A DNA stretch of 64,000 bases. Source: Gammaproteobacteria bacterium (GTDB taxonomy: Bacteria > Pseudomonadota > Gammaproteobacteria > Pseudomonadales > Pseudohongiellaceae). Shown one piece after another: positions 30,912-32,651 of the stretch; position 1 is the stretch's first letter, and each line of letters begins with the position of its first letter. The DNA lies in assembly GCA_030654835.1 (NCBI GenBank), contig JAURWS010000044.1, positions 4,964 to 68,963 of the forward strand, read 5' to 3'. The position numbers and the translations under genes are program-made. Under the pieces are notes generated by a model, which was given only the letters and a program-made list of their open reading frames with translations, ran no database searches and had not been told where the DNA came from.

Positions 30912-32651
30912 TCAGTGCGTATCTCTGTGATAGGTCAGGTAGCCAGTAAACATCTCATCCTCACTCGTCACCCCTGACGCGATCTCTTCCATCGGGTCCG
31001 GGTTGAAAGGATTGGACACCGAGTTGTCGAATGCGCCAGAGACTACCACGCGACTGCCTGCCGGCACCTTCACTGGGTGCTCCAGCACATAGTGCGGCTG
31101 CCACGCGTAGTTATAGGCTGGAATGCTGAGAATATCTTCCGTCGTCCCATCCGGGCGTTCGACAGAGAATTTCACATTCTTGCCGCGTTCATTCATGCGC
31201 GCTCTGACGCCAGTGATGATAACGTCTTCATTGAAGACATGCTCGGCCTGCATCGGAATGTCATTCTGATCGGCAGGCAAAACAAACTGTGCAGAAACAG
31301 TCTGCACAAGTCTCTCCTGCAGCTCACCGTCAGCATTGTCTGCGAGGTATAGACCTATTTCGGTGATGCTGTTCAGCTCCGCGCCCATTCCCACATACTG
31401 GAACTGCATCGACAGCTTGTGCCCCTTCGGAATAAACAATCCGGAGCCTTCGGCAAACTCTGCGACAATCGCGCGCCCAGGTGAATAGCTTTCGAGAAAG
31501 CGCCGCGTAGTATGAGTACTGGTGCGCTCAGCACCCCAGAAGTCCTCTCCAGGAGCCGTCACATAGGCGACCATCTGATGCAGCGCACCATTGCCCGTGG
31601 GCTGATATTGAACGGCGCGCACCCAGGTGTCCTCGGTGAATGGCAGCTCGAGGTCCAGATAAATGTCCTCAAGAATTCCGTTGACAGGCACCTTCTGCAG
31701 CGGTGTGCTGATGATCAGATCGGGCTCACCGATGAGCCACGGCTGCCGCTCCTCGAACTTGAGTTCGGCCAGCGGGTCTGTCGGGCTATCGCCGCGAGGG
31801 CCGCCCGCGTTGATCCAATGCACAACCGTTTGAATATCGGCGGTGGACAGATAGCGAGCGGTCGTCGAATGGCCTACATCAGGGTCAATCTGAGCTGGCG
31901 GCATCCGCTTGTTCAGTATCACTTCCTTGATCATCGGGGACCAGCCCAGCAATGACACATGCCGATCCATCGCGAAGGGGCCTGCGCCCCACTGGCGGTG
32001 ACACTCCACACAATTTTCAATAATGATAGGGGCGACTTCGGTGGCATAGTCCGGCACTTTCTCCTTGTGCGCGTCGCGTACCGGGAAACTCAAGGCGCAT
32101 CCATCGCCAGTGCCTGTCTTCACGGTGTCCCTTATTGGCCCAGCCAACAATCCGGCCAGCGTCTGGTCGAGCTCGCTGCTGACGGCACCGCTGTAAAACA
32201 GCGACATCCGGTCGGGGTTCAGAACCCGCACCTCGCCGGCAACAGCCAGCCCCAGTGCTTCCGATATCAACTGCCCCGAGTCCTGCAAAACCGGCAAGCC
32301 AAGGTCGAGCGCAGCCAGTTCGGCACGGCCACGACCCTGAGAGTCGATCAAGAGAAACTCTATCCCCTGCTCCGCGTAGCGTGACTGCAAGGCTTTGTAG
32401 TCCTCGACCATGGAGCCCATGTTCTGACAGGTCGCGGCATAAGACATCAACACGACAGCCTGCCTGTGCTGATAACGGCTCAACTGATGAAATTTGCCAT
32501 CACTGTCCATCAATGCAAAATCACCGGTGCGATCCAGTGCCGCATTGGCACCGTTCGCCGCCAGACCTAGCATGACGCTGAAACTGAGAAGCTTGACTCT
32601 GGTGTTCACAATATACTGCCTCGAAAAAGTGGTGATGCGACGACTCTTCAA
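30912..32651 (-). CDS. exported thioredoxin-like + haem-c (CxxCH) + degenerate PHM-like protein (P3, paralog of P2)
   Basis: The signal peptide is ..LLSFSVMLGLAANGANA. A redoxin-like segment follows (..AVVLMSYAATCQNM..). The haem module CVECHRQWG..KRMPP is also present. The C-terminal half aligns to P2 by eye. The start may be the GTG at 32609. Confidence 0.7.
   Translation of the reverse strand: MKSRRITTFSRQYIVNTRVKLLSFSVMLGLAANGANAALDRTGDFALMDSDGKFHQLSRYQHRQAVVLMSYAATCQNMGSMVEDYKALQSRYAEQGIEFLLIDSQGRGRAELAALDLGLPVLQDSGQLISEALGLAVAGEVRVLNPDRMSLFYSGAVSSELDQTLAGLLAGPIRDTVKTGTGDGCALSFPVRDAHKEKVPDYATEVAPIIIENCVECHRQWGAGPFAMDRHVSLLGWSPMIKEVILNKRMPPAQIDPDVGHSTTARYLSTADIQTVVHWINAGGPRGDSPTDPLAELKFEERQPWLIGEPDLIISTPLQKVPVNGILEDIYLDLELPFTEDTWVRAVQYQPTGNGALHQMVAYVTAPGEDFWGAERTSTHTTRRFLESYSPGRAIVAEFAEGSGLFIPKGHKLSMQFQYVGMGAELNSITEIGLYLADNADGELQERLVQTVSAQFVLPADQNDIPMQAEHVFNEDVIITGVRARMNERGKNVKFSVERPDGTTEDILSIPAYNYAWQPHYVLEHPVKVPAGSRVVVSGAFDNSVSNPFNPDPMEEIASGVTSEDEMFTGYLTYHRDTH

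Follow-up and report, generated by a model that had tools for sequence, protein, structure and literature searches.

In the 64,000-nucleotide stretch of a Pseudohongiellaceae genome analysed here (hereafter the window; contig JAURWS010000044.1 of assembly GCA_030654835.1), four genes, which we call P1 to P4, form two convergent pairs. At the centre of this work is P3, a minus-strand open reading frame (ORF) at 30912..32651 that encodes 579 amino acids from a TTG start and combines a redoxin-like domain, a haem c module, and a PHM-fold region with degenerate copper sites. P3 belongs to an uncharacterised, three-part kind of protein that was already known; what is new here is a conserved clade within it whose copper site is dead, which has lost the histidine pair of CuM, the O2-activating copper site of PHM, and whose genes almost always adjoin those of one or more of the other three proteins.

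The P3 gene and its domains

A likelier start than this TTG is the GTG at 32609, giving a protein of 565 amino acids. This codon is favoured because a Shine-Dalgarno sequence, GAGG, stands 9 nt upstream, because it opens a Sec-like signal peptide, and because a database homolog with 95% identity to P3 is likewise 565 amino acids long. From the GTG, the N-terminus reads MNTRVKLLSFSVMLGLAANGANA and then ALDR. By inspection, the probable Sec signal peptide is VNTRVKLLSFSVMLGLAANGANA (32541..32609, minus strand as for all P3 features; residues 15-37 of the 579-residue frame), ending in ANA with cleavage before the first residue of ALDR. P3 is thus probably exported.

Downstream of the signal peptide, residues 40-190 (32082..32534) form a thioredoxin-fold domain. 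A sequence-only reading of the window had proposed an AhpC/redoxin-like segment here, and a Pfam hidden Markov model search agrees, with AhpC-TSA matching residues 43-136 at 29.8 bits (E = 6.5e-7), above the gathering cut-off of 26. When a full-length profile of the P3 family was compared with the PDB, closer relatives emerged over ~170 residues, namely 2YWI from Geobacillus kaustophilus (1.2e-22), the uncharacterized 3U5R (7e-22), and 2CVB, a probable thiol-disulfide isomerase/thioredoxin (2.4e-19). The function of these three is not established, and they matched far better than ResA/TlpA (~1e-10) or any peroxiredoxin. Diverse profiles (A2 and A4) were needed to reach both this group and PHM, as a shallow profile of close relatives (A3) retrieved nothing from the PDB, and single-sequence searches of PDB sequences with P3 and P2 gave a weak 3U5R match or nothing.

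In the profile alignment, C75 of P3 (32427-32429), at the first CxxC position of the thioredoxin fold, pairs with the single active-site Cys in NHCPFV of the three structures, and C185 (32097-32099), in a GC.I motif, pairs with their C-terminal GCsIKW. The P3-family domain thus has the same two cysteines, with the "CP" after the Cys position replaced in P3 (AATCQNM), and it is fused and exported, whereas the three structures were solved as stand-alone proteins. The two cysteines also tend to occur together. Both are invariant in the 120 closest P3 homologs, and across 134 full-length representatives of the family their counterparts are both present in 78, both absent in 43, and present singly in only 13 (Fisher p = 3e-22). 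Because of this both-or-neither pattern, the domain is better described as carrying a co-varying pair than as truly single-Cys. The earlier suggestion that one Cys had replaced CxxC therefore stands for the active-site motif but not for the domain as a whole.

Some database names would make P3 a peroxiredoxin or thiol peroxidase. Family members appear as "redoxin domain-containing protein", "peroxiredoxin", or "cytochrome c domain-containing protein", the AhpC-TSA match is above threshold, and one published study (PMC3091736) considers that the C-terminal cysteine of 2YWI may be a resolving one. We nevertheless regard this assignment as very improbable. The conserved Cys matches the single Cys of the 2YWI group, whose similarity (1e-22) far exceeds that of any characterised peroxiredoxin. 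It stands at the first CxxC position, which in the NCBI CDD entry PRX_like1 is not known to be the peroxidatic one. The label moreover describes the N-domain alone and ignores ~390 of 565 residues. As for the PxxxTxxC context of a peroxidatic Cys, SYAATCQNM shows no Thr-x-x-Cys.

The middle of P3 is a mono-haem cytochrome c module (residues 196-290; 31782..32066), with the haem-binding motif CVECH at 31998-32012 and a presumed axial Met, M250, in KRMPP at 31902-31904. None of the Pfam cytochrome models reached E = 0.1 on P3 itself, but the module aligns to that of P2, which does match Pfam Cytochrom_C. At the level of motifs, P3 has the CxxCH and distal Met expected of a class I c-type cytochrome. 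CxxCH is kept in 133-134 of the 134 family representatives and M250 in all 134, and both are present in all 120 P3 orthologs and in all 58 redoxin-fused proteins sampled for the tree described below.

A PHM fold without most of its copper ligands

P2 (29257..30765, plus strand) combines haem c and PHM-like regions with the full set of copper ligands (HH, H, HxH, M), and its gene is convergent with P3. The two proteins had been aligned by eye in three places, namely within the haem module, at the IQTVVHWINAGGPRGD block behind it, and at the C-terminus. BLASTP recovers all three in a match of 26% identity over 399 columns (E = 1e-30) that takes in the entire C-terminal body. Once the haem module is removed, the PHM-like parts still align at E = 3e-13, so the homology extends beyond that module and the two are true paralogs.

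A structural model of P3 identified this body as a PHM fold. The AlphaFold2 (AF2) model of P3, built from 14 sequences, has a predicted local distance difference test score (pLDDT) of ~80-95 over residues ~300-579. With Foldseek, its top 31 matches in the PDB were all PHM (E down to 3.7e-12, target-based template modelling score up to 0.64), followed by human DBH. P3 accordingly has the two-subdomain β-sandwich common to PHM (PDB 1PHM, 1OPM, 1SDW, 5WM0) and DBH (4ZEL). The N-subdomain, with the degenerate CuH site, spans residues 300-445 (31317..31754), as delimited by the AF2 model, Foldseek, and column mapping. The C-subdomain, from which the CuM site has been lost, spans residues 446-579 (30915..31316) and is recognised by Pfam Cu2_monoox_C (residues 474-577, E = 4.5e-4).

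Ligand columns were set independently with rat PHM, to which a profile built from diverse members of the family aligned at E ~4e-8. In this alignment, the family motif vvHH falls on TVHHML (H107/H108), lqlHY on LQVHYG (H172), rpHmHyRgk on RVHTHHLGK (R240, H242, and H244), and sedEMfigY on SSDEMCNLY (M314 and Y318), such that the motifs of the P3 family account for the HH, H, HxH, and M ligands of PHM. P3 itself departs from PHM at both sites. At CuH, H358-Q359 (31575-31580) occupy the H107/H108 positions and Q418 (31398-31400) that of H172, i.e., two of three histidines are Gln. At CuM, R483-A-R485-M-N487 (31191-31205) replaces R240-V-H242-T-H244, with Arg and Asn at the two His positions, and M567 (30951-30953) is the counterpart of M314. 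P3 retains equivalents of the two PHM residues that hold the substrate carboxylate in the PHM-substrate structure 1OPM, with R483 for R240 and Y571 (30939-30941) for Y318.

Overall, P3 has substitutions at four of the six ligand positions, as the claim that most had been lost implied, and no alignment places a His at any of the four substituted columns. The by-eye comparison of the HxH segment was right that the histidines are missing, but its register was two residues off, since HGH of P2 lies opposite R485-M486-N487 rather than R483-A-R485. Judged by these columns, the O2-binding CuM site of PHM cannot form in P3, nor can CuH form in the subclade of the window protein. We infer that P3 no longer hydroxylates. 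P3 also differs from PHM in its covalent-haem-type and thioredoxin-like domains and in being a bacterial, exported protein with no ascorbate system in view.

A ligand-poor branch of a large bacterial family

The redoxin domain had been taken for a gain relative to P2, a view that the wider family does not sustain. The genome of the window (3.84 Mb) carries nine redoxin-haem-PHM-like genes alongside seven P2-type genes, and P3 is 33-45% identical to the eight other redoxin-fused paralogs vs. 26% to P2. In six of these eight, the set of HH, H, HxH, and M is complete. Beyond this genome, we searched 1.84 billion representative proteins exhaustively and obtained 9177 relatives (50%-identity clusters) at E ≤ 1e-3, including 1008 at E ≤ 1e-30. 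Like P3, with its signal peptide and redoxin, cytochrome c, and PHM-like parts, the members of this bacterial fusion family have a three-part architecture, and ~120 of the 134 full-length representatives (~90%) keep HHH at CuH and HxH plus M at CuM. P3 lacks this typical set. The R-M-N pattern at CuM is restricted to two of the 134 representative clusters, namely the P3 orthologs and a sister type represented in the same genome by a paralog on contig C19. In a FastTree phylogeny rooted with P2-type proteins, the P3 clade is nested among full-ligand family members.

Since the nearest relatives of P3 are redoxin-fused paralogs, mostly with all ligands, the redoxin domain is, judged from sequence, an ancestral trait. 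P3 thus descends, with most of its ligands lost, from a family whose members are probably copper enzymes. The ~90% of fusion-family representatives that keep all six ligands stand alone in their genomes, whereas proteins of the P3 clade have no CuM His pair and their genes are linked to P4 and/or P1-P2. P2-type proteins (the neighbour and its six paralogs) share the haem module and PHM-like core with P3 but have no redoxin domain, retain all ligands, carry Gln and Trp in place of the R240/Y318 equivalents, and always occur with P1.

A second, independent ligand-degenerate lineage of redoxin-fused proteins is present in the same genome outside of the window (contig C58:13452-15413, minus strand). 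It has HS and R at CuH, Q-A-H at CuM, and Thr in place of the Met, and this "HSR" pattern recurs in ~5 of the 134 family representatives.

To our knowledge, two-copper monooxygenases of the PHM/DBH type have been studied almost only in animals. The haem-fused bacterial relatives constitute a very large family in which we found no characterised member, and the P3 clade amounts to a natural "CuM knock-out" preserved over a long evolutionary time. As such, it shows which parts of the fusion are indispensable after the oxygen chemistry is lost, namely the haem, the Cys pair, and the equivalents of the residues with which PHM anchors its substrate.

Decay and conservation within the P3 clade

The loss of the CuM His pair is common to the whole clade. 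None of the 120 closest database homologs has the pair; position 483 is always Arg in them, and position 485 is Arg in 81, Lys in 36, and His in 2. The pair is missing again in 22 + 11 further sampled genes. The Met ligand varies within the clade, with the M567 column holding Met in 106 of these 120 homologs and Leu, Ile, or Val in the remaining 14, vs. Met in 126 of 134 family representatives. The CuH triad is kept as HHH in ~107 of the 120, and the two extra CuH losses are confined to a small subclade including the window. The proposed ligand loss thus holds in full for P3 itself, whereas its orthologs as a group have lost only the His pair of CuM. CuH decays stepwise with increasing identity to the window protein, with HHH at 50-62%, HHQ at 67-71%, and HQQ at 90-99%, although HQQ also occurs in one 57% relative. 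In the sister C19 type, HNH is frequent at CuH.

Against this decay, much else is fixed. CxxCH, M250, C75, and C185 are invariant in every CuM-less clade member, and the Cys pair, at 100% in P3 orthologs, is found in only ~60-66% of the wider family. R483 and Y571 are also invariant (120/120), while both positions vary across the wider family. In conservation, the PHM-like subdomains match the rest of P3, with columns at least 90% conserved over the 120 orthologs making up 34% and 40% of the two subdomains, 30% of the redoxin domain, and 45% of the haem module. No compensating metal ligands specific to the CuM-less clade were common to both of its P4-linked subclades.

Progressive loss of catalytic ligands might suggest that the P3 gene is degenerating into a pseudogene, a notion to which we give almost no credence, as the selection analysis in effect refutes it. 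Compared with a 92%-identical ortholog, P3 has a ratio of nonsynonymous to synonymous substitution rates (dN/dS) of 0.026 at a synonymous divergence (dS) of ~1.9, and P4 a dN/dS of 0.039. P3 is therefore under strong purifying selection and is not a decaying gene. The frame is also intact in all sampled genomes, 30-45% of the columns in each domain are highly conserved, and synteny is kept across genera. P3 thus combines lost catalytic residues with purifying selection and a retained fold, as is expected of a pseudoenzyme.

Loss of CuM coincides with a new gene neighbourhood

We examined the history and context of this loss in 58 redoxin-fused proteins from the genome of the window and from 40 loci of the same taxonomic family. 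The 22 CuM-less proteins among them (R or K at position 485, N or S at 487) form one clade (Shimodaira-Hasegawa-like support 0.999) nested among full-ligand proteins. P4 and/or P1-P2 lie next door to 21 of these 22 genes vs. none of the 36 other redoxin-fused genes (Fisher p = 7e-15, with related genomes treated as independent). An independent sample of GTDB species representatives yielded 14 CuM-less genes, of which 11 were new, and all 14 adjoin the same partners. Taken together, 32 of 33 clade members adjoin P4, P1-P2, or both. The CuM site was thus lost in one event, and this event coincides with a changed genomic context. The clade thereby ties P1, P2, P3, and P4, four exported proteins of unassigned role, into one system.

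The arrangement seen in the window, with P1-P2 converging on P4-P3, is found in at least 15 genomes from several genera. A co-directional P2-P1-P4-P3 cluster occurs in three genomes, including that of isolate LSUCC0112. In other loci, P3 is divergent from P1 and one or more P2-type genes with no P4, or P4 is paired with a P3 gene of the C19 type (P3') without P1-P2, and a stand-alone redoxin gene of the 2YWI kind may then follow. A P2-type gene is present in all 19 sampled genomes with a P3-clade gene vs. 14 of 42 others, and the recurrence of the cluster across genera bears out the proposed genetic tie between P3 and a P2-type gene.

P2 is nonetheless not the tightest partner. This is P4 (32655..33788, minus strand), whose gene lies 3 nt upstream of P3, is translationally coupled to it, and adjoins the P3-clade gene in 18 of the first 22 sampled; the two are likely in the same operon. 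As P4 also accompanies P1-P2 modules that lack P3, the core system looks like P1-P2(-P4), with P3 an addition attached to P4. The earlier view of P3 as a non-catalytic or re-purposed partner of P2 hence holds as regards the lost catalytic copper-site ligands (four of six), whereas the partner needs to be changed, with P4 the closest.

The cultured isolate LSUCC0112 (SPIB01000001.1; loci L023 / L059), in which the four genes have overlapping or near-abutting ends, would be practical for genetics. The stand-alone redoxin gene, of ~200 amino acids, directly follows P4-P3' of the C19 type at L027 12921-13505, L028 5425-6087, and L033 6084-6719.

A putative accessory role for P3

We consider it fairly probable that P3, a catalytically disabled descendant of its family, serves the P1-P2-P4 system as an accessory haem/thiol subunit that does not hydroxylate. 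The ancestor would have been an exported fusion in which a thioredoxin-like domain of the 2YWI type was joined to a mono-haem cytochrome c and a two-copper core of the PHM type. In one Pseudohongiellaceae-like gammaproteobacterial lineage, a member of this family would have become linked to P4 and P1-P2, and both CuM histidines were lost (H242 to R or K, H244 to N or S). Constraint on the Met ligand and on the CuH histidines would have been relaxed after this loss, with two of the three CuH histidines becoming Gln in the window subclade, while selection has held on to the haem motif, the redoxin Cys pair, and the PHM-fold body with its R240/Y318 equivalents.

Such a subunit could deliver electrons via its haem to P2, the copper enzyme, or to P4, with the Cys pair possibly gating this flow or being coupled to it. 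In addition or instead, the old cleft with its Arg and Tyr may hold a carboxylate-bearing ligand or dock a partner, the copper chemistry being carried out by P2. Among the roles suggested earlier (chaperone, substrate binder, or redox relay), the evidence narrows the choice, and an electron relay is the mechanism we prefer, if only tentatively. A retained redox role is suggested by the Cys pair, which is more conserved in the P3 clade than in the active enzymes of the family, and by the invariant haem motif.

Several observations weigh against this accessory role. P1-P2(-P4) modules are widespread without P3, and P4-P3' pairs are found without P1-P2 nearby, so P3 is not an obligatory partner of P2. 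The intact CuH triad of ~107 orthologs makes a mononuclear copper function possible for most of the group. The AF2 model is unreliable over the redoxin domain and the haem module, with pLDDT < 50 for much of residues 1-270, and a literature search for bacterial fusions of PHM-like, cytochrome c, and redoxin domains found nothing relevant and no characterised member.

The main rival explanation is that P3 is purely a ligand-binding pseudoenzyme, i.e., a substrate receptor, chaperone, or specificity subunit for P2 or P4, whose haem and cysteines are leftovers. The invariance of R483 and Y571, set against their variability in the wider family and the Gln and Trp of P2, would be expected of such a protein, as would a PHM-like body conserved as well as the rest of P3. 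These two residues are inherited from the sister enzymes, however, and are not new, and mere leftovers sit poorly with a haem motif and two cysteines that are invariant in the clade, the Cys pair being kept in only ~60-66% of the active enzymes of the family. On balance, we find this explanation unlikely, if worth keeping in view.

Alternatively, P3 could still be an enzyme with another site, either a mononuclear copper at CuH fed by the haem or a composite metal site with the His cluster of P4. Besides the CuH triad of most orthologs, this possibility draws on P4, which is translationally coupled, highly conserved, and rich in invariant His, and whose most conserved loops are modelled at low confidence, as is often the case for cofactor or interface loops. 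The P3 orthogroup also has, in some measure, clade-specific invariant histidines (H62, H261, and H520). Yet two of the three CuH histidines are gone from the window subclade, which is still under strong purifying selection and must therefore function without CuH. In addition, Gln or Thr takes the place of H520 in the sister P4-linked clade, and P4 pairs also with the fully liganded P2. We therefore hold an enzyme of this sort to be quite unlikely.

A further, improbable variant would have P4 and P3 together form a two-protein periplasmic redox enzyme, with the catalytic metal on P4 and with P3, stripped of its coppers, as the dedicated subunit for electron input and substrate holding, through its Cys pair, haem c, and PHM cleft with Arg and Tyr. 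If this were so, the shell of an oxygenase would have been turned into a redox adaptor serving a catalytic partner to which it is not related.

Partner genes and flanking regions

P4 encodes an exported protein of 377 amino acids whose invariant features include six His in all, comprising those of the motif SHYH (residues 87-90) together with H95, H198, H257, and H370, and the motif VLRGGI.N.GGPA. Its model is all-helical, with a predicted template modelling score of 0.76, and the most conserved loops (87-99, 255-270, and 347-377) are the least confidently modelled. P4 has no recognisable fold, with no Pfam or NCBIfam match, no PDB profile match, and a best Foldseek E of 0.34, and its relatives are all named "hypothetical". 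P1 (28212..29195, plus strand; 327 amino acids, exported) is the constant companion of P2-type genes and belongs to no family that we could recognise, as it has no PDB or Pfam match apart from a sub-threshold PKD.

P2 has a history of its own. Between the window and genome G051, dS is 0.29 for P2 (29257-30765 vs. L009 8255-9709), compared to 1.9 for P3, 1.1 for P4, and 0.84 for P1, and the genome of the window contains three P2 paralogs of 89-92% identity (a divergent pair on contig C16 and one copy on C8). Gene conversion among the P2 copies or a recent replacement of P2 is likely. Up to 11 P2-type copies are found per genome, and in other genera of the family P1 is followed by two or three tandem P2-type genes, often with a convergent P4 (L067-L073, L058, and L062). 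In two metagenome-assembled genomes, P2 is split into two ORFs by a frameshift or an assembly error (L049 7871-9379 and L054 7938-9186). The idea that P3 supplies in trans a redoxin domain needed by P2 is weakened by P1-P2(-P4) modules in related genomes with no redoxin gene nearby.

No consistently conserved flanking gene points to a substrate, the neighbours being lineage-specific and not kept across genera. In some genera (L016, L021, L023, and L058), the flanks include an exported family of ~350 amino acids without known identity, along with an amidohydrolase (Amidohydro_3), an MFS transporter, a beta-lactamase-fold protein, and an S33 alpha/beta-hydrolase.

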